From Candidatus Zixiibacteriota bacterium (GTDB taxonomy: Bacteria > Zixibacteria > MSB-5A5 > JAABVY01): 64,000 nt of DNA. Shown here one piece after another: positions 19,257-41,522 of the stretch. The DNA lies in assembly GCA_011056555.1 (NCBI GenBank), contig DSEQ01000025.1, positions 3,736-67,735 on the forward strand. The letters run 5' to 3'. The translations under genes and the position numbers were made by a program. The notes beneath the pieces were generated by a model, which did not search any database, was not told the origin of the DNA, and worked only from the letters and a program-made list of their open reading frames with translations. The stretch's first letter is position 1; every line of letters starts with the position of its first letter.

Positions 19257-20363
19257 ATGAGTAATCCGAAAATGATTGTAAATTCATCAAATCTGCGAAC
19301 AATTTGTATCCTGACCATATCGATTTCAATAATTCTTTCAGCTGCTGCCTTATGCCAGCAGACCGGCGGGGAGAAACTGATTATAGGCACCAAACCGACC
19401 GCTCCATTCGCCATGAAAGCCGAGGATGGTTCATGGTATGGCATCAGTATCGAGCTCTGGCGCACGATTGCCTCGGATCTGGAGCTTGAATATGTGTTCG
19501 AGGAGCGTGATTTGCAGGGATTGCTGGAGGGACTCGAGGACGGCTCCCTCGATCTGGTGGTCTCGGCCCTCACCATAAATTCCGAGCGCGAGGAAAAATT
19601 CGATTTCTCTCATCCCTTCTACAGCGCCGGTCTGACGATAGCATCATCTGCATCGGGAGGGGCCAGCTTTCTCAATGTCGCCCAGGGGCTTCTTTCCTCC
19701 CAGTTCATCCGGGTGGTAGCCATACTGGTCTTCATACTGCTTGTCACCGGTTTTTTGGTGTGGGCCTTTGAACGAAAACGCAACGCTGAACAATTCGGCG
19801 GAGGAATCGGAAAAGGTATCGGTTCCGGATTCTGGTGGTCAGCAGTTACCATGACCACCGTAGGTTATGGAGACAAGGCGCCCAAAACTTTCGGCGGGCG
19901 GATTGTGGCCCTGATCTGGATGTTTGCCGCTATCATTATCATATCCAGTCTTACGGCAGCTATTGCCTCGGCCCTGACGGTCTCTAAACTCGAGGCCAGG
20001 ATAAGCGGACCGGAGGATTTGCCCCGGGTGGAGGTGGGTACGATTGCCAGTTCCACCAGCGAGAAATATCTTCAGAATAATAAGATTAACTTCAGCACTT
20101 ATGATAGTCCCGGAGACGGCCTTAAAGCAGTGGCCCAGGGGGAGATAGATGCCTTCGTTTATGACGCGCCAATTCTCAGATATTTGATTAACAATAACTT
20201 CAAGGGTAAGCTGAAAACCCTGCCATCGACTTTCTTGCACCAGGATTACGGCATCGCTCTTTCAAACGGGAGGCCACTACGAGAAGCGATAAATATTGTC
20301 CTCTTGCGCGAAATCGCCCGACCGGAATGGGAAAGCCTTCTCGATAGATATATGGGAAAATGA
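19257..20363 (+). CDS. GluR0-like prokaryotic ionotropic glutamate-receptor homolog: a ligand-gated K+ channel with a split periplasmic solute-binding (SBP_bac_3) domain
   Basis: Signal peptide; S1 lobe; M1; pore helix with K+ selectivity filter TTVGYGD; M2; S2 lobe. Architecture S1-M1-P-M2-S2 as in Synechocystis GluR0. RBS GGGGAGG. Confidence 0.7.
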   Translation: MSNPKMIVNSSNLRTICILTISISIILSAAALCQQTGGEKLIIGTKPTAPFAMKAEDGSWYGISIELWRTIASDLELEYVFEERDLQGLLEGLEDGSLDLVVSALTINSEREEKFDFSHPFYSAGLTIASSASGGASFLNVAQGLLSSQFIRVVAILVFILLVTGFLVWAFERKRNAEQFGGGIGKGIGSGFWWSAVTMTTVGYGDKAPKTFGGRIVALIWMFAAIIIISSLTAAIASALTVSKLEARISGPEDLPRVEVGTIASSTSEKYLQNNKINFSTYDSPGDGLKAVAQGEIDAFVYDAPILRYLINNNFKGKLKTLPSTFLHQDYGIALSNGRPLREAINIVLLREIARPEWESLLDRYMGK

Positions 20364-20466
20364 ATGTGCGGAATTCTGTATCGGGATTATCAATAATCAT
20401 AAGCGTCTTCCTTTCAACAAGTTAAAAAATTCCGACAAAAAGTGTAGAACTTTTTAATCCAGTTGT

Positions 20467-20482
20467 TGTTGAATATTCTACA
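20467..20482. promoter_or_regulatory. 16-bp near-perfect palindrome TGTtGAATATTCtACA upstream of the sensor-kinase/NtrC operon
   Basis: 33-48 nt upstream of the HK start. The same core recurs at 32833-32848. Confidence 0.45.
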
Positions 20483-20514
20483 TAATTGTTGATCCATATA
20501 CTAAAGATTAACCC

Positions 20515-21570
20515 ATGTTTAAAACCAATAAATTATACCTGGTACTTCTGATCGTCATCACGGCAGCGACACTTACGCTGCATTATTATGGCCTTCTGTT
20601 CGAAGGTGTCCTGGGACATTCGCATCTGATCCATGTCATCCATGCGCGTCTGTGCTACATACCGATTGTTCTTGGCGCGGTTTGGTTCGGACTGCGCGGG
20701 GGCATTACTACCGCTGTTGTTATTTCGATTTTCGCGGTTCTGTACATCCAGCTCAAGCCGGTAATCATTGCTGAAGATCTGATAAATGAATACACTGAGA
20801 TCGCATTTTATCTGGCGATCGGCGGCATGGCCGGAATTTTGGTCGACAGGGATCGTTCATTTGTGCGCAAGAAGGAAGAGGCTGAGAGAAAGCTCCAGCA
20901 GGCACAAAGGCTCTCCATGATGGGCCAGATGACCGCTTCCATTGCGCATGAGATCAAGAATCCGCTTGGGTCGATCAAGGGCGCCTCGCAGATTTTGAAG
21001 GATGATTCGCTTTCGGACGAAGAGAAGCATGAGTTTGCGGAAATGATAGAAAAGGAAGCCGACAGGCTCGATTTTGTGGTCAAGGATTTTCTGTCCTATG
21101 CCCGCCCATCCCCATCCAGGTTTTCTGAAATAGACCTGCGCGAAATTCTGAATTCGGCCTATAAACAGCTTAAATATCAGGCTCGTGACAGTAATATCGA
21201 AATAAATATGGATTTTGACGAGGTCCCCTCGATCAAGGCCGACCCCGACAAGCTGCGCCAGGTATTTCTCAACATATTGCTCAACTCATTTCAGGCTATG
21301 CCTGATGGAGGAAAAATCGAGATAAAGTGCCTTCACGATAACGGTGATGCCGTGATAATCATCAGAGATAATGGTATCGGTATCCCCGTGCAGGATCTGG
21401 ACAAAATATACGATCCGTTCTACACTACCAAGAGCCGCGGTTCAGGCCTGGGACTGGCAACTACAAAAGCAATTATCGAAGAGCACAACGGCGCCATCAA
21501 AGCCGACAGCGCCAGGGGTGAGGGCACAACATTCAAAATATCGCTGCCAATTGAAGGTGCGGAGCATTAA
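20515..21570 (+). CDS. sensor histidine kinase (membrane N-terminus with a His-rich segment, HisKA + HATPase_c)
   Basis: 3-4 N-terminal TM helices; H-box SIAHEIKNPLGSI; N/G1/G2 boxes. Its stop TAA overlaps the RR start (TAATATG). Confidence 0.85.
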   Translation: MFKTNKLYLVLLIVITAATLTLHYYGLLFEGVLGHSHLIHVIHARLCYIPIVLGAVWFGLRGGITTAVVISIFAVLYIQLKPVIIAEDLINEYTEIAFYLAIGGMAGILVDRDRSFVRKKEEAERKLQQAQRLSMMGQMTASIAHEIKNPLGSIKGASQILKDDSLSDEEKHEFAEMIEKEADRLDFVVKDFLSYARPSPSRFSEIDLREILNSAYKQLKYQARDSNIEINMDFDEVPSIKADPDKLRQVFLNILLNSFQAMPDGGKIEIKCLHDNGDAVIIIRDNGIGIPVQDLDKIYDPFYTTKSRGSGLGLATTKAIIEEHNGAIKADSARGEGTTFKISLPIEGAEH

Positions 21571-21571
21571 T

Positions 21572-22924
21572 ATGAATAATGAGAGAATACTGGTTGTGGA
21601 TGATGATGCCTCGCTCAGGAGGATTATCGAGTTCCACCTGAAAAAAAAAGGCTACAAACTAACTGCCCTGGAAACTGCGGAAGAGGCCGTTAAGCATCTC
21701 AAAAAATCCAACTTCGAGCTTCTGATATCCGACATCAAAATGTCGGGTATGGACGGCCTGGATTTACTGCAGATAGCGCAGGAAATAAAGCCCGATCTGC
21801 CCGTGATTTTCATCACAGCCTTCGGGACTATTGAGATGGCGGTGGAGGCCATGAAGCTGGGAGCCTATGACTATATCACCAAGCCCTTTGATCTGGATGA
21901 TTTCATGCATACGGTGGAAAAAGCTCTGGACTATCACAGGCTTCTGGATGAAAACCTCAGGCTCAAGAAAGAGCTCAAGAACAGGGATTCATTTTCCAAT
22001 ATTATTGCCGCCTCAAAGCCGATGGAGGAAATTTTTAACAGCGTCAGGAAGGTGGCCAACACCGACACAACAGTGCTCATAACGGGTGAGTCGGGCACCG
22101 GTAAGGAGCTGATCGCCAGGGCCATACACCGGGAGAGCGAACGTTCCGACAATCCCATGATAACGGTCAATTGCGCCGCAATTCCCCGGGACCTTTTGGA
22201 GAGCGAACTGTTCGGCCATGTCGCCGGAGCATTTACCGGTGCGGTCAAGAACAAGACCGGTAAGTTTCAATTGGCTGACGGGGGAACGATCTTCCTGGAT
22301 GAGATCGGCGACCTTAGCATGGAACTGCAGGCCAAGCTCTTGCGAGTACTGGAAAATAGAGTGGTTGAACCGGTTGGATCGAATGAGTCCACGCCGGTAG
22401 ACATAAGGGTACTGGCGGCAACCAATCAAGACCTTAATAAAAAACTGAAAGCGGGTGAATTCAGGGAAGATCTGTTTTACCGTCTCAATGTCATTCCGAT
22501 CAATATTCCTCCCCTGCGCGAGCGCCGGGAAGATATTCCCCTCCTGGTGAAACACTTTCTCAACGAATACTCCGACAGTAAGAGACTATCCATTGATCCG
22601 AAAGCTCTCAAGGAATTAAGCGAGTATGACTGGCCCGGTAATGTGCGTGAATTAAAAAACCTGTTGAAGAGAATCGCTGTGCTGGCTGAGAACAGCAAGA
22701 TCATGCCTTCCGATCTTCCGCCTGAGATAAAATCAGAAGGCAGCCGGAAAACCGGCGAAGACAGAGCCGGTAACAATTCCCTGCAGGAAACTGAAAAAAA
22801 TGCGATAGTAGATGCTTTAAGGAAGACGGGATGGAACCAGACGCGGGCTGCCAAACGCCTGCAGATACCCCGACATATATTGATCTACCGCATGAAGAAG
22901 TACGGCATCAGAGAAGAAGAATAG
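21572..22924 (+). CDS. sigma54-dependent response regulator, NtrC/ZraR/AtoC family (REC + AAA+ sigma54-activator + Fis-type HTH)
   Basis: REC with phospho-acceptor Asp; Walker A GESGTGKE; GAFTGA motif (GHVAGAFTGA); C-terminal HTH (QTRAAKRLQIPRHILIYRMKK). Confidence 0.9.
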   Translation: MNNERILVVDDDASLRRIIEFHLKKKGYKLTALETAEEAVKHLKKSNFELLISDIKMSGMDGLDLLQIAQEIKPDLPVIFITAFGTIEMAVEAMKLGAYDYITKPFDLDDFMHTVEKALDYHRLLDENLRLKKELKNRDSFSNIIAASKPMEEIFNSVRKVANTDTTVLITGESGTGKELIARAIHRESERSDNPMITVNCAAIPRDLLESELFGHVAGAFTGAVKNKTGKFQLADGGTIFLDEIGDLSMELQAKLLRVLENRVVEPVGSNESTPVDIRVLAATNQDLNKKLKAGEFREDLFYRLNVIPINIPPLRERREDIPLLVKHFLNEYSDSKRLSIDPKALKELSEYDWPGNVRELKNLLKRIAVLAENSKIMPSDLPPEIKSEGSRKTGEDRAGNNSLQETEKNAIVDALRKTGWNQTRAAKRLQIPRHILIYRMKKYGIREEE

Positions 22925-22945
22925 AAAACCTGAGCCGATCTACGG

Positions 22946-23485
22946 TTACTTCAGATGAATCATTTTCCCGATAGTGTAGTAATTGTCGGCGGCAAAAATG
23001 TAGAAGTAGACGCCGCTGGAGAGAGATGCGCCGTCCTCGTTGCGACCGTTCCAAGTAACCTCGTAATCGCCCGGAAAATCAATCTCATCTTTAATGATTC
23101 TAACCTTCTGGCCAAAAATATTATAGACCGCAATATAGACGTAGGCCTCTACCGGAAGGCTGTATTTGATCACGGTGCTTGAATTGAAGGGATTGGGATA
23201 ATTTTGCGGCAGAAGAATTTGGAAGTCCTCGTTTTCTTTTGCCGCTTTCTCGGCCAGTTTTTCTGCCAGTTCCTCGGGGCTGACTTGTTCAAATTCGCCG
23301 TTACCGGAGTTTCGCGAATAGACCTGGAACGGTTTTTCAGCATCAGTTGAAATCTCAACTCTCTCGGCCTGCTCCTCGGCCTCTTCTATTTTCTCCGCCG
23401 GGCGATCGGGGTCCTCCCTGGAGAAGACATTATTGGAGATGCCCATAAAAATTAGAGTTAAAACTAAATGCACCATTACTTTCAT
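22946..23485 (-). CDS. small secreted acidic protein with a T9SS C-terminal sorting domain
   Basis: Signal peptide; C-terminal PQNYPNPFNSSTVIKYSLP...VYNIFGQKV...GVYFY CTD. Confidence 0.6.
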   Translation of the reverse strand: MKVMVHLVLTLIFMGISNNVFSREDPDRPAEKIEEAEEQAERVEISTDAEKPFQVYSRNSGNGEFEQVSPEELAEKLAEKAAKENEDFQILLPQNYPNPFNSSTVIKYSLPVEAYVYIAVYNIFGQKVRIIKDEIDFPGDYEVTWNGRNEDGASLSSGVYFYIFAADNYYTIGKMIHLK

Positions 23486-23602
23486 TATTAACTCCTGGTG
23501 CCGTGTTGATTATCTATTATAATTTAAGATTTTCCGAGCCAAAAACAACAGCAAATGACTGTTAAGAAAAATCCTGCCGTTTACATAATTCGGCCCTTTA
23601 TG

Positions 23603-24154
23603 CTACCATGAATCAGGGCTCAATGCTGGACGGCTTTCGGTATGAAAATGATAATAATGATAACCTTCATCCTCATGACCCATATGCATGCCCCTGCCGT
23701 CATGGCCCATGATACCATTCTCATTGAACATGATCATGTAATCGGTTCCATAATGCAGAGCGGAATCGGGCATGAATTCGCAGCTATCGAGATTTTCGTT
23801 CCAGTTAAACCTTCCGCCCCATTCAATTGAATCAATCCAGACCATCATATGGTTTCTGCGGATCATATTCATATGTCCCATTCCACCGTAGTGATCAAGT
23901 GAATCCATCCACTCATGCATCGGTTCTCCGCCGGAAAAATAGCTGTACAAGCGCACAGACTGTGTATCCATTGGCATATTGAATGCCATATGCAGTGATG
24001 TTTCGGTTGATACTGAGGACGCTCCGTCAGCCGGGATTATGCGCAGCAGTTCCGGATCCAGATTCGAGCTTTCCCCCGGTGAATCGTCGTTGCATGAGAT
24101 TAAGAGCAAAAATAAAATGGCCAGACCCCCCATAATAAGCGTTGCGTTTTTCAT
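23603..24154 (-). CDS. His/Met-rich lipoprotein, CopC-like putative periplasmic copper-binding protein
   Basis: Lipobox LISC; an Ig-like CopC-type N-terminal segment (LRIIPADGASSVSTETSLHMAFNMPMD); Met/His clusters (MGHMNM, MHMGHEDEGYHYYHFH). Sits in the copper island. Confidence 0.45.
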   Translation of the reverse strand: MKNATLIMGGLAILFLLLISCNDDSPGESSNLDPELLRIIPADGASSVSTETSLHMAFNMPMDTQSVRLYSYFSGGEPMHEWMDSLDHYGGMGHMNMIRRNHMMVWIDSIEWGGRFNWNENLDSCEFMPDSALHYGTDYMIMFNENGIMGHDGRGMHMGHEDEGYHYYHFHTESRPALSPDSW

Positions 24155-24203
24155 AAGTCTCTCCTGTGCTTATTCTTAGCTCGAGAACACCCGTGATCGA
24201 GCT

Positions 24204-24422
24204 TCAGCTTATTAGATCTTTTTTCTTCTCGTCATATTCTTCTTTGGAGATCTCGCCGGAAGCATAGCGTCGTTTCAGAACCTCCATTGCTGACGGTTCC
24301 TGTGATCGAGAAGAAGTTCTGTCGACCGTAAATTTTATCAGGAACACTATACCGATAACCACCAGGACCCAAAATATTATCATCCAGAGACCTCCGTAAG
24401 CCATATGATCATATCCGAACAT
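24204..24422 (-). CDS. SHOCT-domain small membrane protein
   Basis: One TM helix followed by the C-terminal SHOCT motif EVLKRRYASGEISKEEYDEKKKDL. Confidence 0.6.
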   Translation of the reverse strand: MFGYDHMAYGGLWMIIFWVLVVIGIVFLIKFTVDRTSSRSQEPSAMEVLKRRYASGEISKEEYDEKKKDLIS

Positions 24423-24505
24423 GCTGCACCGCCCTTGATTCTAAGCGGGCAGGCTCGAAAGTCGAATGTCGGCCTGCCCGGACATACATTTCGTTATGCT
24501 TCAAC

Positions 24506-24928
24506 TTAGTTAGAATCCTCCTTTTTGTTTTCGCCAGATTCCATCTGCATCTTTTTCTGCTCGGACATCTGGCCACCCATCATCTGCATCATTTTCTGTC
24601 CCATTTGGCTATGATCAGCCATCATCTGATGCATATTCTGCATCATATCCCGATGCTGGACCATCTCGTCCCTGAGTTCTGTGCAGTCTTCCATATCCAT
24701 CATGGTATTGAAGTGCTGCTCCATTTTTTCGAAATTAGTCATCATGGTTTCAGACTGATGGACCATGTTTTTCATCATGTTTTGCTGGCTCATCATCATG
24801 GAATCATCGGACATCATCATATGCTGTCCCTTATCGTCGCCGCGCATCTCCTGCTGGGCGGTTGCAAATGCGAACAGCATCAAGAGCGCCACCCCCAGAA
24901 ATATGCCAAAAGTAAACTGCCGTTTCAT
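24506..24928 (-). CDS. secreted methionine-rich protein (about 22% Met), putative periplasmic Cu(I)/Ag(I)-binding protein
   Basis: Signal peptide, then Q/D/M-rich repeats (HMMMSDDSMMMSQQNMMKNM...). Strong RBS AAAGGAGG. Adjacent to cusA. Confidence 0.6.
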   Translation of the reverse strand: MKRQFTFGIFLGVALLMLFAFATAQQEMRGDDKGQHMMMSDDSMMMSQQNMMKNMVHQSETMMTNFEKMEQHFNTMMDMEDCTELRDEMVQHRDMMQNMHQMMADHSQMGQKMMQMMGGQMSEQKKMQMESGENKKEDSN

Positions 24929-25043
24929 CGTATCCTCCTTTTTTGGATTGGTTCAAAGCTTTGTGCTGCAAGCTTTGATATAAACTGTTTTCTGCTCGTT
25001 AGGTAAAACAAAAGAAACCGCTCCCTCGTTCCGCCTAAATAAT

Positions 25044-28000
25044 TCAGGAGGATTTGTCAGCTTTCAATGTTTTTCTCATTTTTTGTTCTGCGATAGCGCT
25101 GTACAATACCGGTACCACAAACACTGTTATCAGGACTACAGTCATTCCGCCGAATGACGGTATCGCCATCGGAACCATAATATCCGAGCCTTTGCCGGTT
25201 GAAGTCAGGACAGGTATCAGCGCAAGGATAGTAGTACCCGCGGTCATCAATGCCGGACGGATTCTGCGCCTGGCCGCCTCCACAGTGGCCTCACGGATTT
25301 CCCCGACCGTCACAGGCTTTCTTCTGTCAAAAACCTGCCGCAGATAGGTTGCAACTATAACGCCGTTATCGGTGGCGATTCCGAACAGAGCCAGAAACCC
25401 CACCCATACCGCAACCGAAAGGTTGTATTGCCGAACCTGGAAGAGCTCGCGGAAATCGACTCCGAAGAGCGAGAAGTTCAGGAACCATCCCTGGCCGTAA
25501 AACCAGAGCATCAAAAACCCGCCGGCCCAGGCCACAAAAATACCCGAGAAAACCAGAAGCGTGGTGGGCACATTCTTAAACTGAAAATAGAGTATTAAAA
25601 AGATGATCAGCAGGGATAATGGAAGTACAACAATAAGTTTCTTTTCAGCCCTGACCTGATTCTCATAACTGCCGGCAAAGCTGTAGCTTACCCCGGCAGG
25701 AATATCGAAATCGCCTTTATTGATTTTTGATTTCAGATAATTATCGGCCGCCTGTACCACCTCGACCTCGGCATAATTCGGCTTCTTATCGAATATCACA
25801 TATCCGACGAGAAATGTATCCTCAGACTTTATGACCATCGGGCCCCTGCGAAATTCTATCTCGGCTAATTCCTTCAATGGTATCTGGGTACCGTCAGCCG
25901 CCGGAACAAGAATATCGCCCAGACTTTCCAGTGTATTTCTCAGCTCCCGAGGATAGCGCACTCGTACCGGATAACGCTCGCGGCCTTCCACTGTGGTGGT
26001 CAGACGTTTTCCTCCGACTGCAACCTCTATGATGTCCTGTATCTTTCTTATATGTATGCCATAGCGGGCAATCTTATGCCGGTCGATATCTATTTCCAGA
26101 TAAGGCTTGCCGACAATTCTATCGGCGATGACCGAAGCCGGTTCCACCTGCGGCACCTCTTTCAGATATTTTTCGATTTGATAACCGACCTGCTCGATCG
26201 TCTCCAGGTCGGGACCTTTGACTTTGACTCCCATCGGAGCGCGCATGCCCGACTGCAGCATCACTATGCGCGTGGCAATAGGCTGGAGTTTCGGGGCCGA
26301 GGTTGTACCCGGTAATTTGCCCGCCTTGATAATTTCATCCCAGATGTCATCGGGACTGTTAATATGATCGCGCCACTGACGATACGGTCTGCCGTCATCG
26401 TCGGGTATAAGCTCGCCCTTTTCATCCCGCACAAATTCATCCTTTTCGCGATCATATTTGAATTTCAAGACCTTACCGTCCTTGTTGGTCCTGTATTCCG
26501 ACTTATAATTTATGATCGTTTCAATCATGGAAATCGGGGCCGGATCAAGGGGCGAATCGACCCGTCCGATCTTTCCAACCACATTCTCAACTTCAGGGAT
26601 GGCATTAAAAGCCTTGTCCTGCAACTGGAGTACCTCCAGTGCCTCGCCTATCGAGGCATGCGGCATGGTGGTGGGCATGTACAGAAACGATCCCTCGTCC
26701 AGATCGGGCATGAATTCTTTGCCCAGTCCCGGGAATGTATGGTTAAGCGATGTATATACCTGCGTGGATCTCACAAAATCAGGCATGAAACCGAAGATTT
26801 TATTGAATCCGAGCCAGATTGAAATCCCCAAAAAGACCAGAAGTGTCGGGACCGCAAGAAAGAGCAGCTTATGTTCGAGACACCATCTCAGCACCGGTTC
26901 ATAAATTCTCATCAATCCTATAAAGAGCAACAAGATTCCGCCAATTAAGATAATAACGAATATTAAATTCAGCAGGAATCCATTGCCAATGCCCAGAGGC
27001 ATCCAGTGATGGGCCAGAAATACTCCCACTACCAGCACTATCAAGTAATTGACATAGCGCGGGATTAATGACTGCACTTCCTGCGGGATATATTTTTTGA
27101 ATTGCAGATAGGCCGCAATCAAAACAAGCGCGATTCCGGCCAGCCACAATGACCAGAAGACCGCAATAAACGCTCCCGCCAGGAATATCCCGATCGGCAG
27201 TATGCTTTTAAACCTGGATAATTTTGCCTTGCGGGTGAATAGTAAATCTGCGAAGGGAGGTATAATTGTCAGGGCCACTATGACCGAAGCTACCAGTGCA
27301 AATGTCTTTGTATATGCCAGCGGCTTGAACAGCTTGCCCTCAGCGGCAACCATCGTGAACACCGGAAGAAACGAAATTACAGTGGTTAAGATAGCGGTCA
27401 GTACTGCGCCCCCGACTTCGGATGAGGCAGCGAATATAACATCCCGTTTATTTGCGTCAGGCGGGGCCTTCTCGAGGTGCCTGAGTATGTTCTCACAAAT
27501 AATCACCCCCATATCTACAATTGTACCGATGGCAATTGCAATACCCGAGAGCGCAACAATATTGGCATCCACTCCAAAAAGTTTCATACCGATGAACACC
27601 ATCAGGACTGTGATTGGCAGCAGCCCGGAGATCAGCAGGGAACTTCGTATGTGCATCAATATTACGATCACCACAATGATGGTTACAAGGATTTCATCCA
27701 CCAGGGCAGTATTCAATGTCCCCAATGTCTCATAGATGAGGCCGGTACGGTCGTAGAACGGCACTATTGTAACCTGGGTCTCGGTACCGTCAGAAAGGAC
27801 TTTCCTGGGAAGCCCGGGAGCGATCTCCTCGATTTTTTCTTTCACATGATTTATTGTCGCCAGCGGATTTTCTCCGTAACGAACAACCACTACACCGCCC
27901 ACAGCCTCTGCCCCGCCCTTATCCAGCGCGCCGCGCCTCATTGCCGGACCCAGAGACACAGTGGCAACATCCTGAATCCGGATGGGGACGTTTTCACGTT

Positions 28001-28823
28001 CGAGGATCACGGAACTTCGGATATCATCCAGACTTTCGATAAAACCAAGTCCGCGGATGACATATTCAACCCGATTTATCTCGATCGTCTTAGCCCCCAC
28101 GTCGACATTGGACATCCTGACCGCATTGAAGACATCGGTGAGTTTAATGTTGTGGGCCTTCAAAGCGCTGGGATCGACATCTATCTGATATTCCTGCACA
28201 TAACCGCCTATCGAGGCCACCTCGGAGACACCATCAGCCGACTGCAGGGCGTAACGAACGATGTAATCCTGGATCGATCTCAATTCATGCAGATCCCATC
28301 CACCTGTTGGATTACCGTCTTTGTCGCGGCCCTCGAGGGTGTACCAGAAGACCTGTCCTAATGCAGTCGCATCCGGCCCAAGCGAGGGCTGCACTCCTTC
28401 CGGCAGTGTACCGGTCGGGAGGGAATTCAGTTTCTCCAGCACACGCGAGCGTGACCAGTAGAACTCGACATCCTCCTTGAAGATCACATAGATGGTCGAA
28501 AATCCGAGATAGGAATAACTGCGGATTGTCTTGACACCAGGTATGCCCAGCAGCGAGACCGTCAATGGATATGTAATCTGGTCCTCAACATCCTGGGGTG
28601 AACGTCCCATCCACTCGGTAAAGACAATCTGCTGATTCTCGCCAATATCCGGAATAGCATCGACCGGAACAGGTTCACGCGGCAGATTGCCCAGATCCCA
28701 GTCAAAGGGAGCGACCATAATACCCCAGCCGATCACCATTATTGTCAGCACGGATACGACCAGCTTGTTGTCCAGGCAGTAGCGTATTATTTTATCGAGA
28801 ATAGAATGATTTCTGTTATTCAA
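25044..28823 (-). CDS. cusA: heavy-metal efflux RND permease, CusA/CzcA family (1259 aa, with an extra ~150-aa periplasmic insertion)
   Basis: 12-TM RND topology with HME-family conserved regions (N-terminal MLNKIIRYCL..-like). Length exceeds the ~1040-aa typical CusA because of an insertion around KSEYRTNKDGKVL... Confidence 0.9.
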   Translation of the reverse strand: MNNRNHSILDKIIRYCLDNKLVVSVLTIMVIGWGIMVAPFDWDLGNLPREPVPVDAIPDIGENQQIVFTEWMGRSPQDVEDQITYPLTVSLLGIPGVKTIRSYSYLGFSTIYVIFKEDVEFYWSRSRVLEKLNSLPTGTLPEGVQPSLGPDATALGQVFWYTLEGRDKDGNPTGGWDLHELRSIQDYIVRYALQSADGVSEVASIGGYVQEYQIDVDPSALKAHNIKLTDVFNAVRMSNVDVGAKTIEINRVEYVIRGLGFIESLDDIRSSVILERENVPIRIQDVATVSLGPAMRRGALDKGGAEAVGGVVVVRYGENPLATINHVKEKIEEIAPGLPRKVLSDGTETQVTIVPFYDRTGLIYETLGTLNTALVDEILVTIIVVIVILMHIRSSLLISGLLPITVLMVFIGMKLFGVDANIVALSGIAIAIGTIVDMGVIICENILRHLEKAPPDANKRDVIFAASSEVGGAVLTAILTTVISFLPVFTMVAAEGKLFKPLAYTKTFALVASVIVALTIIPPFADLLFTRKAKLSRFKSILPIGIFLAGAFIAVFWSLWLAGIALVLIAAYLQFKKYIPQEVQSLIPRYVNYLIVLVVGVFLAHHWMPLGIGNGFLLNLIFVIILIGGILLLFIGLMRIYEPVLRWCLEHKLLFLAVPTLLVFLGISIWLGFNKIFGFMPDFVRSTQVYTSLNHTFPGLGKEFMPDLDEGSFLYMPTTMPHASIGEALEVLQLQDKAFNAIPEVENVVGKIGRVDSPLDPAPISMIETIINYKSEYRTNKDGKVLKFKYDREKDEFVRDEKGELIPDDDGRPYRQWRDHINSPDDIWDEIIKAGKLPGTTSAPKLQPIATRIVMLQSGMRAPMGVKVKGPDLETIEQVGYQIEKYLKEVPQVEPASVIADRIVGKPYLEIDIDRHKIARYGIHIRKIQDIIEVAVGGKRLTTTVEGRERYPVRVRYPRELRNTLESLGDILVPAADGTQIPLKELAEIEFRRGPMVIKSEDTFLVGYVIFDKKPNYAEVEVVQAADNYLKSKINKGDFDIPAGVSYSFAGSYENQVRAEKKLIVVLPLSLLIIFLILYFQFKNVPTTLLVFSGIFVAWAGGFLMLWFYGQGWFLNFSLFGVDFRELFQVRQYNLSVAVWVGFLALFGIATDNGVIVATYLRQVFDRRKPVTVGEIREATVEAARRRIRPALMTAGTTILALIPVLTSTGKGSDIMVPMAIPSFGGMTVVLITVFVVPVLYSAIAEQKMRKTLKADKSS

Positions 28824-28833
28824 ATCAGCCCTC

Positions 28834-30777
28834 TTAATTAGTCTTTTCCATATTCGGTGACAGTTTTTCCTTGATCTCTCCGCAACGCAGCATCATAGCG
28901 CCGTAAAACGAATTATAGACGGTATCTACAGTCTGGAGCCAGTAGGCCCCCTGGTTATCACGCGCCATCGGACAGAAAGTCAGGAAATAATCCTGGTCCG
29001 AGGCGTGTCCGAATGTTTCCTGCATTTCAATAATAACATTAGAAAGACCATAAAATGCATCGCGTGATTCTTCGATATTCTCGGCCTCGATGCCGGCCTC
29101 TGCATCCGCGATCATCTGCCCGGAATACTTTATCCATTTCATATGCGCATGATCCTTGAACAGGCCCATATCAACATTTTTGACCGACTTTTTTAATCCG
29201 CTGTAAGCTTCTGTAGCCTTGTCCAGCTCATCCGAGGCAAGCGCCATCTGCACATCAAAATAATGCGCATATACCGGGGTCAGGGCCTGCAATGTTTCAG
29301 GATCAAGCGTCACAGCTTCGGGTTCTTTCTGCCCGGAGGAGGGCCGCGATATGGGAGATTGCTGGCCATGCTGATGGGCCGGGCTGCCCCCTCCGCCTTC
29401 CACAAACATCATACTGGGCCGGGCCTGAATCTGAAGCTCGCTGTCGATCTTGAAGGCACCATTGGTAACAACCATTTCACCTTCAGAGAGGCCGGACTTG
29501 ACAACATATAAGTCTCCCGCACGCGGACCCAGTTCAACCTCTCGCCCTTCAAAGACAGGCTTGTCTCCGTCGCTCAGTTCGATATACACAACCGCGCGCT
29601 TTCCTGTCAGAAGAGGAGCGGAAGCCGGTATTACAAGCGGCGCCTCGGATTCCGAATCAGCCAACCGGTCATTGATCACATTTCCTTCCCTGTCCAGAAC
29701 CGACATAATAGTACCGCTTACAAACATGTCTGGCTTGAGCAGACCCTTCGGGTTATCCACTTCGGTCCGTACTCTGGCTGTACGGCTTTGAGGATTGATC
29801 ACAGGATCGATAAAGGTTATTTCAGCGTTGAATTCCTTTCCCGGGAAGGATGGGGATGTGAACACAACATTCTGGCCGACCTTAAGCCAGGGCAGATCGG
29901 TTTCATAGGCGTCGAAAAGCACCCAGATACTGGAAAGGTCGGCTATGGTATAGATTTGAGTGCCGGTCTTCACATACATTCCTTCTTTGGCGTTCTTTTC
30001 GACCACCACTCCGCTGACAGGAGATTTCAGCTTGACCTGCTCCAGCACAACTTCTGATTCTTCAATATCCTTTATTTGGCCTTCAGTCAGACCATAAAGC
30101 CGCAGCTTCTCACGAGCGGATTGAAGCGTCAGGCTGGCGGTCGACTTCAAAACAGAGCTGCCGTTGTTGAGCCTCTCGACCGACTGTTTGGCCTGCAGAA
30201 GTTCTTCCTGAGCGCTTATCAGTTCGGGTGAATAGATGTGTACCATATGTTCACCTTTCTGGACTGTCTCGCCTGTGAAATCAACGAACATTTTATCGAG
30301 CCTTCCGGGAACCCAGGCGGTGATATAGGAAACCTCAGCTTCATCATACGCAATCCTGCCGTTCATCCTGATCTCGGACTCAGCGAAGGCGCGTCTTACC
30401 GGAGTGGTTTGAATGAGAGCCAGTTTCTTGGCAGTTTCGGACATCTTTAACTGGCGCGGTCCCAGATCACCGCTGTTGTCCGATTCAAGCGGGATCAAGT
30501 CCATGAAGCAAATCGGACATTTTCCCGGCTCAGAGAGCTTTATCTGGGGATGCATGGAGCAGGTCCAGGTCGTCGGCTCGGATGAAGCGGCCTGCGCCTC
30601 GGCCTGGCTGTGCTCATGATTGGCGGCAGTGTTTGCCGATTCACCCCCCCGGCCTCCCGAGACTATCATGCCGAAGGAGAACACCACAACTAAAATCGCA
30701 ATGAATACAATCAGTCCCTTTCCCTTGCGCGGTATAAATCCCAGCAGGCTGTCATTATTATTTCTATGTTCAGTCAT
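28834..30777 (-). CDS. cusB: efflux RND periplasmic adaptor (CusB-like) with an N-terminal heavy-metal-binding Cys motif and a C-terminal DUF3347-like extension
   Basis: CSMHPQIKLSEPGKCPICFMDL (HMBD), then beta-barrel/lipoyl/MP domains, then a helical C-terminal extension (YAHYFDVQMALASDELD...). Confidence 0.8.
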   Translation of the reverse strand: MTEHRNNNDSLLGFIPRKGKGLIVFIAILVVVFSFGMIVSGGRGGESANTAANHEHSQAEAQAASSEPTTWTCSMHPQIKLSEPGKCPICFMDLIPLESDNSGDLGPRQLKMSETAKKLALIQTTPVRRAFAESEIRMNGRIAYDEAEVSYITAWVPGRLDKMFVDFTGETVQKGEHMVHIYSPELISAQEELLQAKQSVERLNNGSSVLKSTASLTLQSAREKLRLYGLTEGQIKDIEESEVVLEQVKLKSPVSGVVVEKNAKEGMYVKTGTQIYTIADLSSIWVLFDAYETDLPWLKVGQNVVFTSPSFPGKEFNAEITFIDPVINPQSRTARVRTEVDNPKGLLKPDMFVSGTIMSVLDREGNVINDRLADSESEAPLVIPASAPLLTGKRAVVYIELSDGDKPVFEGREVELGPRAGDLYVVKSGLSEGEMVVTNGAFKIDSELQIQARPSMMFVEGGGGSPAHQHGQQSPISRPSSGQKEPEAVTLDPETLQALTPVYAHYFDVQMALASDELDKATEAYSGLKKSVKNVDMGLFKDHAHMKWIKYSGQMIADAEAGIEAENIEESRDAFYGLSNVIIEMQETFGHASDQDYFLTFCPMARDNQGAYWLQTVDTVYNSFYGAMMLRCGEIKEKLSPNMEKTN

Positions 30778-30807
30778 GTCATTTCTCCTTTCAGCACCAG
30801 GTTCCTG

Positions 30808-31344
30808 TTACATCTCGTGCTGATGCCCATCCGTTTCCATTTTCATTTCAGGCTCTTCTGCTTGCTCATCTGTGGATGACTTTTCATCGAGTTTCATCAG
30901 ATACTTCTGAGGGTCTTCTTCAAATGACGCGACACATCCGGCACAGCAGAAATAAACCCTGCGTCCTTCGTAATCAGCATAAACTTCCTTTTTTTCCAGC
31001 TCCTTACCGGAAACCGGGCAGGTTGTCTGAATATTCTCGAACAGTACGCCTTCGGCGGCTGCCTTCTTAAAATATTTATCCGGATCGGCAACAAGCGCAC
31101 CGGAACATCCCGGACAGCAATGATACACCCTCTGGCCCTGGATATCGGTGTAGACTTCCTTATCTATCTTGCCGCCCATAACCGGGCAAATGGTTTGCGC
31201 TTTCATTTCCACAGCATCAGCTTTCTCCGCACTTTCGGACTTTGCGGTTTTTTCTGCCTTCTCATGCCCCTCGCCTGCCAAGGCCAGTCCGAATGTGAAA
31301 ATGGAAAGTGCAAATACGATTGAGAAAAATTGAAGCTTTTTCAT
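30808..31344 (-). CDS. secreted tandem YHS/TRASH-domain metal-binding protein
   Basis: Signal peptide. Two repeats of TCPV-G-x(n)-Y...CC-GC (TCPVMGGKI...YHCCPGCSG; TCPVSGKEL...YFCCAGCVA). Confidence 0.65.
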   Translation of the reverse strand: MKKLQFFSIVFALSIFTFGLALAGEGHEKAEKTAKSESAEKADAVEMKAQTICPVMGGKIDKEVYTDIQGQRVYHCCPGCSGALVADPDKYFKKAAAEGVLFENIQTTCPVSGKELEKKEVYADYEGRRVYFCCAGCVASFEEDPQKYLMKLDEKSSTDEQAEEPEMKMETDGHQHEM

Positions 31345-31364
31345 CAGCAGCTCCTTTCAAAAAG

Positions 31365-32747
31365 TTAATTGGTTAAATCGGTTTCTAATTCTTTTCCGGT
31401 TAAAACCTCTATCTCGGCCCCGCTTTTGGCCAGATCAGTTTTTGCTTTTTCAAATTTCAAAAGAAAATCCAGAAGCAGCCTCTGTGCATCGAGCACACTC
31501 AAAAAATCAGCCTCGCCCGCCTGATATGCGGAAAAAGATACATTCAGTGACTGCTCCGCCTTGGGAATCAGGCCGTCACGATACAGGCTGACCTTGCGCA
31601 AGGCGTCATTGTGCCTGTAAACTGCTTCCTCCATAATGGTAGCTATATGATTTTCAGAGTTGGCCAGCTTTTCCCGGGTCATCTTATGGCGCGCCTCTGC
31701 TTCCTCTTTTCTGGCCTTATTTTTGCCGAACCAGATAGGAATATTTATGCTGGCTGAAACCATCCAGGGATCCTTCCCGCTATCCTCCAGCGAGGGATTT
31801 ATGGCGTCGCCTGTTTCGATATAATCCACACCGAAAGTGAAGCTGGGATAAGATGATTTGCTCGCCAACCGGATTCCTGCCTCCTCCTTCTCAACCAGCG
31901 ATCTGATAACATCAAGATCGGGATTATTCTGTATCGCGGCCGAAATCAAGGAATCTTCTGAAAGCGTCAATTCATCAACCTCCATCGTATCAGGAACCGG
32001 AATAGGCCGGGAATCTTTTAGATTCAATGCTTCAAGCAGGCGTGCTCTGGCTGGACGAAGCCTGTCTTCAAGGCTCTGTAGACGATCCTCCAGCATGCCC
32101 AGTTCTACCTGGGCCTTGATGACATCGGGATGCCCTTTCTGGCCCACCTTGTATTTGATGCGGGCCACCGATTCCCAGAATTTTAACAGCTCAAAATTAT
32201 CCTCAGTCAACTGGATTTCTCTTCCGAGATAGTAGAGATCGTAGTATGCGGCCTTAACCTGGTAGATCAGCCTCAGCCTGGCCGATTGATAATTCTTATA
32301 AGCGGCATTAGCTGCCTCCAGCGCGATCTCTTTTCTGGCGCCGAGGGTGCCGAACCAGGGGAAGCTCTGCTTCAGGCCGATCCTGAATTCCTGGGGTCCG
32401 ACACGAGTTTCCACATTCTCGATGAAGTGACCGTAGGAGATCATCGGATCGGGCAGGGCCCCAGCATAGCCGGCTTTTTCAAGCTCGGATTTCCAGCGGT
32501 AAAAAGCCGCCTTCAAAGCGGGATTATTTTTCATCGCAATTTTCAGGTAATCCTCAAGCCTGGCGCTGGAATCGATGCCGATTGATCCGGGAGCATCCTG
32601 CTGGTAAAAATGCTCCAGCGAATCCGCCAGTCTTTCGGCTTCGCCCTTATCCAGCGCATATAATAATGAAGGCAAAATCACCAGAGTGACTGCCATCGCC
32701 ATAATTTCTAGTCCTCTTTTTCTCACTAACTTCATCATATCGCCCAT
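31365..32747 (-). CDS. cusC: TolC-family outer-membrane efflux protein (CusC-like OMF), first gene of the cus operon
   Basis: Signal peptide; two OEP repeats; 460 aa. Confidence 0.8.
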   Translation of the reverse strand: MGDMMKLVRKRGLEIMAMAVTLVILPSLLYALDKGEAERLADSLEHFYQQDAPGSIGIDSSARLEDYLKIAMKNNPALKAAFYRWKSELEKAGYAGALPDPMISYGHFIENVETRVGPQEFRIGLKQSFPWFGTLGARKEIALEAANAAYKNYQSARLRLIYQVKAAYYDLYYLGREIQLTEDNFELLKFWESVARIKYKVGQKGHPDVIKAQVELGMLEDRLQSLEDRLRPARARLLEALNLKDSRPIPVPDTMEVDELTLSEDSLISAAIQNNPDLDVIRSLVEKEEAGIRLASKSSYPSFTFGVDYIETGDAINPSLEDSGKDPWMVSASINIPIWFGKNKARKEEAEARHKMTREKLANSENHIATIMEEAVYRHNDALRKVSLYRDGLIPKAEQSLNVSFSAYQAGEADFLSVLDAQRLLLDFLLKFEKAKTDLAKSGAEIEVLTGKELETDLTN

Positions 32748-32753
32748 TAATAG

Positions 32754-32768
32754 TCAAATTGCATGCCA
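32754..32768 (-). promoter_or_regulatory. weak sigma54-like -24/-12 element (TGGCATG-N4-TTGA) immediately upstream of cusC
   Basis: Correct GG-N10-G spacing, but the -12 GC is GA. It ends only about 8 nt before the annotated ATG. Confidence 0.25.
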
Positions 32769-32832
32769 AAGAGCGTAACCTATTAATAGACAATAAGAAG
32801 AGTTTAATGCGGGAAATAAACGGGATGAAAAT

Positions 32833-32848
32833 TGTGGAATATTCTACA
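32833..32848. promoter_or_regulatory. 16-bp near-perfect palindrome TGTgGAATATTCtACA upstream of the cus operon
   Basis: Same core (GAATATTCTACA) and symmetry as the site at 20467-20482. Confidence 0.45.
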
Positions 32849-32890
32849 TTTTTGCAGACTATTCTCCAGAAGATTGGAGGTATCTGGAAA

Positions 32891-33943
32891 TCAGCAGATT
32901 CTGGGAAGCTGTTCTCCGCTTAACATATCAACTATTCTTTCGGTGCCTATTCTGGTTTTTAATGTAACCAGACCCGATTCTTCTTTTGTAACCTTCCCGA
33001 TGATTGCGGGTGAAAAATCGTGATCAGCCGCATTGATAATCACAAGTGCTTTCCCAGCATCGCCGGGCTTAACAAACATGACAAAGCGCCCCTCATTGGC
33101 AACATAAATCGGATCAAACCCGAGCATTTCGCAGGCCCCGCGCACACCCTTGCTGATGATGATGGACTTCTCTTCCAATTCTATCCGGAATTTCGAACTG
33201 CGGGCAATTTCGACACAAGCTGTGGCCAGACCTCCGCGGGTAAGATCGCGCAGGCAGTGAATCTCGATGCCGGCTTCCAGCAGTTTCATGATAACATCTG
33301 AAAGGGATATACAATCGCTTTCTATTTCAGTATCGAACGACAGCCTCTCACGTTTTGCCATCACCGCCATTCCATGCCTTCCAATATCCCCGTTAAGGAT
33401 TACAGCATCCCCCGGCCTTATACTTGAGGGCCTGATATTCAAATCGTGTTCAATAATTCCGATTCCTGCCGTATTAATATAAATCTGGTCGCATTTACCT
33501 TTATCGACTACTTTCGTATCGCCGGTAATAATTTTAGCTCCGGCATTTGCAGCCTCCCTTCGCATCGACAGGCAGATTTTCCAGAGTGTCTCGATTTCCA
33601 GACCTTCTTCCAGAATAAATCCGACGCTTATATACAGGGGGCGCGCCCCGCTCATGGCCAGATCATTGACCGTACCGCAAACAGCCAGCTTGCCTATATC
33701 GCCGCCCGGAAAAAAGATCGGTTGTATGACATATGAATCGGTGGTATAAGCAAGCCTTCCAGACGGTGCATGAATAACCGCGCTGTCATGCTCGCTTTCA
33801 AGACTGGAAGAATAAAAGGCGGCTACAAAAAGCTTTTCTATCAACTCATGCATCAGGCGTCCACCGCCCCCATGAGCCATCCTGATATGCGGATATTTAT
33901 CTTTTGGAATGGGGCACTCTTTTTCTCTCGGGTCAGCATCCAT
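32891..33943 (-). CDS. hypE: hydrogenase expression/formation protein HypE
   Basis: AIR-synthase-related fold with the MAHGGGG N-terminal motif and the C-terminal conserved Cys tail (PRIC). Confidence 0.9.
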
Positions 33944-35053
33944 CTATTCAAGCCCTGTCTTTTGCAGATCCAACTTACGGTAGCTATAGTAAGCGCTGCA
34001 TGCGCCCTCGGAGGAAACCATTGTCGCCCCAAGCGGATTTTCGGGAGTACATCTGGTGCCAAATGCCGGACAGTCGAATGGTTTCCGTGTGCCTTTCAGA
34101 ATCTCAGCGCTAATACATTCCCCGCTTTGATCCGAAATATCATCGACTTTTCCGAATTTCTCCTCGGCATCATACTGTCTGTACTTATCGCTTATTGCAA
34201 GACCGCTGGATTCTATCATCCCAAGCCCGCGCCATCTTCTATCCACGATTGTCAATACATCTTCCATAACCCTGCGCGCCTCTGCATTTCCCTCTCGTTT
34301 TACCGAACGGGAATACTGATTTTCAACCATAGCTCTTCCATCCTCAAGCTGCGCTAAAGACATATATATTCCCTGGATGATATCCAGAGGCTCGAATCCG
34401 GTGACCACAATTGGAACACTATATCCTGCAGACAATTCCTCGTACTGTTCGAAGCCGCTGACAGTGCATACATGACCGGCCGCAAGAAAAGCGTCGACTT
34501 TATTATTATCTGATGACAATATCACTTCCATGGCCGGAGGAATCAGAACCATCGCAGATAAAACCGAGAAGTTCTCGAGTCCAACCAGACCGGCCTGAAG
34601 GATTGACATCGCATTGGCAGGCGCCGTGGTCTCAAATCCGATCCCGAAAAAGACTACTTCCTTGTCAGGATTTTCCTGTGCGATTCTGAGCGCGTCAAGA
34701 GGAGAATAGACTACACGAAGATCGCCCCCGGCAGACTTAACACTAAACAGATCTCCTGCTGATCCCGGCACGCGCATCATATCCCCGAATGAGCAGAATA
34801 TCACATTTTCGCGGCCGGCGATCTCGATTGCCTTGTCGATAATGCTGAGCGGGGTGACACAGACCGGGCATCCGGGGCCGTGCAAAAGCGTAATCCTGTC
34901 GGGCAAGAGCTGATCCAGCCCGTGTCTGACAATGGCATGGGTCTGTCCCCCGCAGACCTCCATTATGTTCCAGTCTCGGCTTGTTATGCTTTTTATTTTC
35001 TCTGCAAAAGCGGCCACAGCCCGGGGATTATGATATTCGTCGATATATTTCAT
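33944..35053 (-). CDS. hypD: hydrogenase formation protein HypD
   Basis: [10 protein letters not shown]..; motifs CGGQTH and [10 protein letters not shown]. Confidence 0.9.
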
Positions 35054-35301
35054 TGCCTGTCCGCCTCTTCCATCATGCCGTCAATTTCATCGAGATATTC
35101 AAAGACTCTCTGCGCCTCATCCTCATCAACCATGCTGATAGCAAAACCGGCATGCACAATCACGTAGTCACCAATATTAGCATCCGGTACAAGTGACAGG
35201 TTTATTTGCTTGATAACCCCGCCGAAATTGACACGGCCGGTGTGCATCAAAGAATCGTCTCTTTCAATGCCGATAATCTTTCCCGGTATGGCCAGACACA
35301 T
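35050..35301 (-). CDS. hypC: hydrogenase assembly chaperone HypC/HupF
   Basis: [10 protein letters not shown]-terminus; 83 aa; ATGA overlap with hypD. Confidence 0.85.
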
Positions 35302-35306
35302 TTATC

Positions 35307-37616: not shown

Positions 37617-37656
37617 ATGCTTTTAAAATAAATCATACGGTTTGATCATTCCGTTA

Positions 37657-38154
37657 TCATGATAAATAAACCAGCTCATCGATCTCTTGCTTGATCTTGA
37701 TAATTACTTTGCTGATCGCAGGCTTGATCTCTTGTGAAAAACACTTTCCGTGCTCAAAATTCCTGCATTCGATACAATAGACAATCAATTTCTCGGGTAA
37801 ACTCTCCAGGGTTCGAGCAAGCTCGATCGCCTCTCTAAGATTAAATGTGTGTGTGGATAAACTCGAGGTGATGTCCTCGGGAATTTCCTCGTTTAATGCA
37901 TCAAATCGAAAAACTGTTCCGGGTTCACATCCGGAGCATACGGCATCCACAAAGAATACATGCTTTCGTTTCTTCCAATGTTCTATCAGTTTTGTGCTGT
38001 CCCCTACATCCTTTATATATCTTGTCCGATCAGGGTAAAGCTGGAAGATCTTTTTTGCTATCACCGGACCCACCGCATCATCAGAGCGGAATTCATTTCC
38101 GGCGCCTACCAAAAGGATAAGGTCTTCCTCCTGCATCGTAGCTACCTCACTCAC
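37657..38154 (-). CDS. hydrogenase maturation endopeptidase (HycI/HoxW family)
   Basis: [25 protein letters not shown]... with the conserved Asp/His metal ligands. Placed directly downstream of the large subunit. Confidence 0.75.
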
Positions 38155-40205: not shown

Positions 40206-40206
40206 A

Positions 40207-41518: not shown

Positions 41519-41522
41519 AAAT

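Follow-up and report, generated by a model that had tools for sequence, protein, structure and literature searches.

Several described regulatory systems resemble the locus reported here. ZraSR (HydHG) of Escherichia coli and Salmonella is a metal-responsive sigma-54 two-component system that acts on its target and on its own operon from shared sites (PMC4987338). CorSR of Myxococcus xanthus is an experimentally shown copper-responsive sigma-54 two-component system (PMC3707914). In E. coli, CusRS lies beside cusCFBA and induces this Cu(I)/Ag(I) pump of the CusCBA type. Here, we consider a 64,000-nucleotide (nt) stretch of DNA from Candidatus Zixiibacteriota bacterium (assembly GCA_011056555.1, contig DSEQ01000025.1, positions 3,736 to 67,735 of the forward strand), which at its full length we call the window, and in it a sensor kinase gene, the gene of a sigma-54-type response regulator, a cus-type efflux operon and a 16-bp palindrome that stands before both the kinase gene and the operon. 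We propose that these parts make up a sigma-54 two-component circuit in which the regulator would bind the palindromes, activate the Cu/Ag efflux operon and control its own operon; from the sequence and its relatives, we put the probability of this at about three in four. The elements of the proposed circuit are as follows.

20443-20450, plus strand: upstream half-site TGTAGAAC, read as the left arm of a second, degenerate site that precedes the kinase-proximal palindrome by about 24 bp
20467-20482, no strand assigned: kinase-proximal palindrome TGTTGAATATTCTACA, proposed as a regulator binding site and as the operator at the kinase-regulator promoter
20515-21570, plus strand: sensor histidine kinase, 351 amino acids (aa), with a four-helix N-terminal membrane domain, HisKA and HATPase_c
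21572-22924, plus strand: response regulator and sigma-54 enhancer-binding protein, 450 aa, with a receiver domain (REC), AAA+, AAA lid and a Fis-type helix-turn-helix (HTH)
32768-32754, minus strand: sigma-54 promoter TGGCATGCAATTTGA, with the -24 GG at 32767-32766 and the -12 TTGA at 32757-32754
32833-32848, no strand assigned: promoter-proximal enhancer site TGTGGAATATTCTACA (TGTAGAATATTCCACA on the operon strand), centred 73.5 bp upstream of the GG
32853-32868, no strand assigned: promoter-distal, weaker enhancer site TGCAGACTATTCTCCA (TGGAGAATAGTCTGCA on the operon strand), centred 93.5 bp upstream of the GG

An earlier note on this DNA had called the system ZraSR-like. This holds for its architecture and logic, but not for orthology. 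Although ZraS and ZraR are among the best named matches of the kinase core and the regulator, the ZraR score is 419 against a cut-off of 760 and the ZraS score 215 against 479, with residues 114-348 alone aligned. No NCBIfam equivalog was reached by either protein, both falling well below the cut-offs for ZraR/ZraS, AtoC/AtoS and NtrC/NtrB. ZraS has a periplasmic zinc-sensing domain between two transmembrane helices, whereas the kinase described here has no periplasmic domain; the target of ZraSR is the chaperone ZraP, whereas here the genes of a resistance-nodulation-division (RND) pump take that place, and no ZraP/CpxP-like gene was found among the neighbours, which comprise a glutamate-receptor-like channel gene and the cus cluster. 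Furthermore, both ZraSR promoters are sigma-54 dependent, whereas the kinase promoter here lacks a -24/-12 element.

By its description, CorSR is alike in that a kinase is paired with a regulator of REC, sigma-54 AAA+ and HTH_8 domains, that sigma-54 promoters of copper tolerance are its targets and that it is encoded beside them (PMC3707914). It differs in its kinase, since CorS combines a signal peptide with a periplasmic sensor domain and HAMP, while the four-helix kinase described here has neither a HAMP nor a periplasmic domain, and in that its targets are a multicopper oxidase and a P-type ATPase rather than an RND pump (PMC3707914). The portion of that source used here mentions no binding motif for CorR (PMC3707914), whereas a motif is central to the present system. 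With CusRS-cusCFBA, the locus shares a two-component system beside a pump whose methionine triad is kept. In contrast, CusR is a winged-helix protein of the OmpR/PhoB type acting at a sigma-70 promoter, whereas the regulator here combines REC, AAA+ and HTH_8; CusS senses metal in a periplasmic domain, which this kinase does not have; and E. coli cus includes CusF, in place of which we find a YHS-domain protein, with Met/His-rich proteins following cusA. In the literature, we found nothing on a sigma-54 regulator of a CusCBA, cus or czc pump, on copper regulation in Zixibacteria or on the motif, CorSR being the nearest system.

A palindrome shared by the kinase gene and the cus-type operon

The palindromes that the earlier note had reported at 20467-20482 and 32833-32848, with their dyad symmetry and a 13-nt identical core, were all confirmed. 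TGTTGAATATTCTACA and TGTGGAATATTCTACA differ at position 4 alone; the core that they share is GAATATTCTACAT, and 7 of the 8 pairs are symmetric in each 16-mer. When the window was searched with the pattern TGTNGAATATTCNACA at up to two mismatches, these two sites were the only matches, with 0.26 expected from shuffles. At up to three mismatches to the ideal palindrome, a single further match appeared, at 32853-32868, which adjoins the site at 32833-32848 with 20 bp from centre to centre. The kinase-proximal copy lies 32 nt before the kinase ATG (20515), while the second lies 85 nt upstream of the first ATG of the gene for the outer-membrane efflux protein, OEP (32747), and 130 nt upstream of the start chosen by gene callers (32702). 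The flanks of the two copies are unrelated beyond a core of about 18 nt; the palindrome is therefore not a repeat element, and an origin as a repeat or mobile element was rejected.

Enhancer sites of comparable form have been described as TGT-N10-ACA for NifA (PMC4999443) and TGTC-N10-GACA for GlrR (PMC4987338). The likeness extends to a dyad of 16-18 bp with TGT and ACA arms, placed upstream of a -24/-12 promoter, often in tandem and dependent on the face of the helix. Unlike in NifA and GlrR, the inner sequence is WGAAWATTCW and the recognition helix PRHILIYRMKK, both of which are specific to the present family, and where NifA has a GAF domain the regulator here has a receiver domain.

That two copies should resemble each other by chance in AT-rich intergenic DNA is a reading that gains some room from the window-only statistics, which are moderate because the pattern was defined after the sites had been seen (2 of 100 window shuffles yielded two pattern matches). 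What speaks against it is the comparison with related loci. The orthologue set comprised about 90 such loci (0.86 Mb; L numbers below), with kinase identities from 39 to 90%; the control was 80 unrelated kinase loci (1.26 Mb) from a full-length kinase alignment dominated by the HisKA pattern [IV]AHEIKNP, and a metagenome scan seeded with the membrane sensor domain only gave 80 loci. In the orthologue loci, the consensus TGTWGAAWATTCTACA had 45 matches at up to two mismatches against 0.22 expected, and 41 of the 45 precede the kinase gene by no more than 400 nt. Of the remaining four and of the outliers at up to three mismatches, every one stands before a cus-type operon (window, L085, L086, L114, L134) or, in L099, before the gene for a homologue of the operon's Met-rich protein. 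In most of the roughly 80 metagenomic orthologues, the motif centre lies 12-52 nt before the kinase start. The palindrome proved not to be widespread at unrelated loci, the control giving one match, and its sites are conserved in orthologous regions both upstream of kinase orthologues of 39-90% identity and upstream of cus operons. Against such counts, the strict position, the co-occurrence with sigma-54 promoters and the near-empty controls, a chance origin is untenable, and we give it practically no weight.

Linkage of the kinase-regulator pair to cus is likewise conserved. Where a locus offers enough context, cus-type genes neighbour the pair in about half of the cases, mostly in divergent orientation. 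Close relatives (L081-L085, L089) have the convergent order, and farther out the order is divergent (L087/88, L092/93, L108, L113, L135, L146, L151 and L157/158, among kinases 40-60% identical) or co-directional (L114, L134). L087, whose kinase is 58% identical, has a 300-nt intergenic region that holds the palindrome and a consensus promoter, TGGCATATAAGTTGC, facing the pump genes, followed by the kinase gene. At 7590-7635 of L087, within this divergent intergenic region, the interval from the enhancer site to the sigma-54 promoter contains a perfect inverted repeat, CGTAACAT-N13-ATGTTACG, to which a bending protein or another regulator may bind.

Some loci depart from the common pattern. A variant motif, TGYRCAATATTGYRCA, occurs in L113, L114, L121, L126 and L127, with G5 changed to C and C12 to G symmetrically in both half-sites, as would be expected of a dimeric protein whose specificity has shifted; the recognition helix showed no evident change to match at these loci. 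A second conserved element, TTGCAATGTGCAA (with variants), lies about 60-70 nt upstream of the kinase-proximal motif in L103, L104, L106, L117, L142, L154, L155 and L161; these are GC-rich distant relatives, and on neither strand did the element fit a -24/-12 promoter. In L104 and L119, the genes on the divergent side encode one small unknown protein together with two large surface proteins (DUF11/OmpA).

The cus promoter and the spacing of its proposed enhancer sites

A weak sigma-54-like element had been reported between the second palindrome and cusC. The element is present, on the minus strand at 32768-32754, but its weakness did not hold up: TTGA and TTGT are the commonest forms at -12 in the clade and outnumber the canonical TTGC, so that the window promoter is typical for its family. 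Transcription of cus is predicted to start near 32742. Matches to GGYAY-N5-YTG(A/T/C) precede the first cus gene in 17 regions. With a T added in front (TGGCAY-N5-YTG(A/T/C)), the pattern is stricter and has a background of 0.01 per 330 nt; the form conserved at cus operons is TGGCAYG-N4-TTG(A/T/C). Wherever the motif stands before a cus operon, a sigma-54 promoter follows it at 74-107 bp. Of the 17 promoter-bearing regions, 14 have one or two sites at 73.5-107.5 bp ahead of the GG; in L108, L113 and L136 the cus promoter is present and no site was found at up to four mismatches. A scan for a sigma-70 consensus at cus gave an uninformative match inside the enhancer sites.

Relatives keep both the promoter and its distance from the sites. 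The promoter reads TGGCATGGCATTTGT in L085 and TGGCACGCCATCTGT in L086, and in these two loci and the window the site-to-promoter distance is 73.5-74.5 bp, across a spacer of about 60 nt whose sequence has diverged. L085 (OEP 75% identical) keeps both enhancer sites, the proximal one identical and the distal one as TGAAGAATAGTCTTCA, while in L086 (OEP 61% identical) the main site is a perfect palindrome and the second is degenerate. Both share the element TTGGCAYG..ATYTG with the window; in alignments of the diverged intergenic regions, this element, the palindrome and the upstream half-site of the palindrome are the main invariant blocks. Pairing at 20-22 bp is the usual state of the sites and is also found in L114, L122, L123, L126, L146 and L151.

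The distances from the proximal site to the GG cluster near 74, 83, 94 and 106 bp, approximately one helical turn apart. For a period of 10.5 bp, the Rayleigh p is about 8e-4 with a hand-curated list and about 5e-3 with an unsupervised list; the latter takes in probable false promoters and overlooks those that have no T ahead of the GG. Helical phasing of the sites to the promoter is thus suggestive, and such spacing classes are what looping by an enhancer-binding protein that depends on the face of the helix would give.

It is also conceivable that the palindrome is bound by some other dimeric factor, of the Crp/Fnr family or CopY-like and encoded elsewhere, the proximity of the two-component system being incidental. 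Crp/Fnr sites have the geometry TGTGA-N6-TCACA and CopY boxes read TACA-N2-TGTA; the 16-bp TGT...ACA geometry resembles the sites of the Crp family, and L085 and L086 have a gene for a cyclic nucleotide (cNMP)-binding protein within the hydrogenase cluster that precedes cus. However, that protein has only about 155 aa, with no other Pfam domain recorded, and is missing from most motif loci, whereas the motif accompanies the kinase-regulator pair through about 60 independent contigs with differing neighbours. Moreover, the cus sites stand at a fixed distance upstream of sigma-54 promoters, which need an enhancer-binding protein, the regulator is the sole such protein encoded nearby, and pairing of sites at 20-22 bp is typical of NtrC-type activators. 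The Crp/Fnr and CopY-box readings were rejected on genomic context, and we consider the involvement of another factor very improbable. Co-occurrence predicts instead that the palindrome is bound by the adjacent regulator (21572-22924).

The kinase-proximal copy and probable autoregulation

Before the kinase gene, TGTTGAATATTCTACA is exactly kept in L081-L083 and L089 (kinase 90% identical) and in L084 (82%), with diverged flanks. At the upstream half-site, the AGAAC block is invariant in an alignment of the window, L081 and L084, and L084 carries a fuller second site, cAGAACATATTCTACA, 22 bp from the main kinase-proximal site. A sigma-54 promoter between the palindrome and the ATG was ruled out: there are only 32 nt, which contain no GG-N10-G, and for this reason the kinase-proximal copy is not an activator site for a downstream sigma-54 promoter. 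The earlier proposal that the regulator both autoregulates and activates cus is largely supported, the sites, the linkage and the cus promoter all being conserved; as no -24/-12 element precedes the kinase gene, the autoregulation is more likely of the operator type than by sigma-54 activation.

In relatives with kinases 54-61% identical, the corresponding copy adjoins a -35 hexamer of the TTGACA type for the kinase gene and also works with a divergent sigma-54 promoter at a distance of 93-107 bp. The window lineage has lost this divergent partner: its upstream gene runs in the direction of the kinase gene, and a divergent sigma-54 promoter is no longer present, yet the 16-mer is still exact. 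Such a history would suit a reading in which the cus-proximal pair alone is functional and the kinase-proximal copy is a relic of the divergent arrangement, or a mere part of the kinase promoter, as would the overlap of the motif in distant relatives with a -35-like TTGAAA hexamer. However, the 16-mer is exact in the window, L081 and L084 despite their diverged flanks, all three being without the divergent arrangement; conservation spans all 16 positions, beyond a hexamer; and a second half-site is conserved 22-24 bp upstream. We regard a relic as improbable. Most likely, the kinase-proximal copy is an autoregulatory operator, and the feedback is probably negative; NtrC acts negatively at sigma-70 promoters.

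Other promoter arrangements were seen among the relatives. In L103-L106, L109, L131, L137, L141, L143, L160 and others, the motif runs into the kinase gene as TGTTGAAAATTCTACA-N10-TATATT-N6-ATG, which looks like a sigma-70 promoter with its -35 inside the motif (TTGAAA-N18-TATATT-N6-ATG in distant relatives) and would imply a leaderless kinase mRNA starting at the A of the ATG. In L108 and L113, a sigma-54 promoter (GGCATGCTAGTTGC and GGCACATTAGTTGC, respectively) lies about 58-65 nt before the kinase start, and we read these loci as putative variants of the circuit with positive autoregulation. The window gene that precedes the kinase gene, at 19257-20363 on the plus strand, encodes a glutamate-receptor-like fusion of a solute-binding protein and an ion channel (SBP_bac_3, Lig_chan, Ion_trans_2), which has the same position in L081 and L084.

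The kinase and the regulator

By its domain content, the regulator is an enhancer-binding response regulator of the NtrC family. Its receiver domain (PF00072, E 7.8e-30) has the phospho-acceptor D54 within LLISDIKM; its sigma-54 AAA+ domain (PF00158, E 2.3e-73) has the Walker A motif GESGTGKE and the Walker B motif LDEIGD; and its C-terminal Fis-type HTH matches HTH_8 (PF02954, E 2.2e-13). Its earlier description as a sigma-54 activator is borne out, as GAFTGA, Walker A and the Fis-type HTH are all present. Wherever loci have the motif in common, their regulators keep the recognition helix, PRH(I/V)L(I/L)YRMKK, nearly invariant, far above the rest of the protein.

The kinase is more unusual in its sensor region. 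The N-terminal 115 residues consist of four hydrophobic helices with connecting loops of at most 8 residues; domain scans found no periplasmic, HAMP or PAS domain in the kinase, and the sole match in the sensor region, to DUF4118, is weak (E 0.0014). The AlphaFold model (pLDDT 82) has helices at 2-28, 37-46, 48-80 and 86-161. The His-rich membrane segment noticed earlier is indeed there, as GHSHLIHVIHARL (stretch GHSHLIHVIH). Across 22 homologues, H23 and C47 are invariant and H43 is nearly so; in a sensor-only alignment of 15 kinase sequences, H43 is invariant. H43-x3-C47 would lie on one face of a helix, an arrangement reminiscent of the Cu(I) site of the plant ethylene receptor, Cys65-x3-His69. 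H23, H43 and C47 are also kept in the subgroup that has DUF11/OmpA neighbours instead of pumps. The top kinase matches carry Zixibacteria names (100%, 90% and 82% identity), and the source names of kinase homologues suggest a spread to related FCB-group lineages. Tentatively, and with more doubt than confidence, we raise the idea that the kinase represents a new class of intramembrane Cu(I)/Ag(I) sensor, whose DUF4118-like four-helix domain would bind the metal directly by way of H23, H43 and C47, coupled across Zixibacteria and other FCB-group lineages to an enhancer code of paired TGTWGAAWATTCTACA sites phased with a TTGA/TTGT promoter.

The cus-type operon and its surroundings

The cus-like cluster occupies the minus strand between 32747 and about 22946 and converges on the kinase-regulator pair. 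It had been taken for a separate island 10 kb away, which is incorrect: the operon ends 21 nt from the regulator gene, and only its promoter is 10 kb off. The genes are, in the order of transcription:

31365-32747, minus strand: OEP, outer-membrane efflux protein (TolC/CusC-like), first gene of the operon; OEP match at E 1.2e-51
30808-31344, minus strand: secreted protein with two Cys-rich metal-binding repeats, one of them matched as a YHS/TRASH domain, in the position of E. coli CusF
28834-30777, minus strand: CusB-like periplasmic adaptor with an N-terminal heavy-metal-binding domain and a C-terminal DUF3347
25044-28823, minus strand: CusA-type heavy-metal RND pump, 1259 aa; TIGR00914 at 786 bits against a cut-off of 701
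24506-24928, minus strand: secreted protein of 140 aa, extremely Met/His-rich, with a signal peptide, MMM runs and HxxM/MxxH
24204-24422, minus strand: membrane protein of 72 aa, the L081 orthologue of which is recorded as PF09851 (SHOCT)
23603-24154, minus strand: lipoprotein with a weak Big_5-like domain and a His/Met-rich C-terminal part, GMHMGHEDEGYHYYHFH; syntenic downstream of cusA in L081 and L085
22946-23485, minus strand: small secreted protein with a C-terminal sorting domain of type IX secretion, last gene of the cluster; syntenic in L081 and L085

The pump scores 632 bits against E. coli CusA, which is its best solved match, and 405 bits against the zinc pump ZneA. Methionines are kept at all three positions that align with M573, M623 and M672 of CusA, which we take to be its three-methionine Cu(I)/Ag(I) site. 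The adaptor matches the HlyD_D23/CusB barrel-sandwich (E 6.8e-75) and exceeds the TIGR01730 cut-off (126 against 94.9), while it falls below that of the CusB subfamily model PRK09783 (130 against 390). No CusF-like match was found in the cluster, where the YHS/TRASH-domain protein occupies the corresponding slot. OEP has possible starts at 32747, 32738, 32735 and 32702, the last (M16) being taken by gene callers; its closest homologue in JGI data (P0122) is 87% identical. The upstream in-frame ATGs of OEP encode a Lys/Arg-rich N-region of a signal peptide, which is conserved in L085 (9965-10001); their distance from the predicted sigma-54 start, just 4-10 nt, would make the mRNA almost leaderless.

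The 140-aa protein matched no Pfam or NCBIfam family; with a composition like that of SilE and PcoE, it is a candidate periplasmic binder of Cu(I)/Ag(I). Its homologue in L099 (1014-1536) has its own copy of the motif, TGTAGAATATTATCCA, and a perfect sigma-54 promoter, TGGCATAGATATTGC, which places the Met-rich protein in the same regulon. The Big_5-like lipoprotein may be another periplasmic metal binder. Whether the gene at 22946-23485 belongs to the operon is uncertain.

Directly upstream of the cus promoter, at 32891-33943 on the minus strand, lies a gene for a HypE-like AIR synthase-related protein; the stretch that separates hypE from the cus enhancer sites gave no sign of a terminator. 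This gene is part of a cluster for hydrogenase maturation and a NiFe-hydrogenase (window 32891-42659, minus strand), which by synteny with L085 and L086 also encodes HypD, HypC, HypF, HycI, the large and small subunits and the cNMP-binding protein.

A model of the proposed circuit

We propose the following model. First, a metal signal would be received by the compact, membrane-embedded sensor of the kinase, leading to phosphorylation of the regulator. Dimers of the phosphorylated regulator on the paired sites at 32833-48 and 32853-68, 20 bp apart, would then assemble an active AAA+ ring. With DNA looping over about 74 bp and at the expense of ATP, this ring would open the closed complex of sigma-54 RNA polymerase at TGGCATGCAATTTGA, so that the genes for OEP, the YHS protein, CusB and CusA would be transcribed, probably together with those for the Met/His-rich proteins farther down the operon. 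At its own operon, the regulator would occupy the single strong site 32 nt before the kinase ATG, an operator predicted to overlap or abut the kinase promoter. The direction of the autoregulation and the extent of the operon are both inferred. The inducing signal is most likely Cu(I)/Ag(I), in view of the cargo genes: the methionine triad of CusA, the metal-binding domain of CusB, the YHS protein and the Met/His-rich proteins.

Several points weigh against this circuit. The site is assigned to the regulator by co-occurrence. At the cus promoter, the -12 element is TTGA, in which A replaces the canonical C; the predicted start (about 32742) lies beyond the first in-frame ATG, which leaves either a leader of only 4-7 nt or a gene start at 32702; and the helical phasing is weaker with unsupervised site calling. 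No plus-strand sigma-70 consensus was found upstream of the kinase gene in the window, and the motif of distant relatives contains the -35 TTGAAA of an apparent sigma-70 promoter, which may explain part of its conservation. No Sigma54 (rpoN) domain was found among the window open reading frames scanned; the presence of rpoN in the genome would be expected from the GAFTGA regulator and the conserved promoters. Finally, the kinase-regulator family is not always tied to metal efflux, as the neighbours in a GC-rich subgroup (L104, L119) are DUF11/OmpA surface proteins and not cus.

Significance

The locus provides a testable metal-resistance circuit for an uncultured phylum, complete with a sensor, an activator, an enhancer motif, a promoter and a target operon. 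We have not found its combination of parts described: a sigma-54 activator of the ZraR/CorR type is joined to a CusCBA pump, which in model bacteria is under control of the OmpR type. The motif and the TTGA/TTGT variant of the promoter offer a means of annotating regulons and sigma-54 promoters, both in Zixibacteria and in related metagenome bins of the FCB group, and the pairing of motif and sensor could serve as a part for metal biosensors. The circuit follows a familiar logic, and it is in its sensor domain that something new could emerge: this compact membrane sensor with its His and Cys residues is a candidate for a new mode of Cu/Ag sensing.

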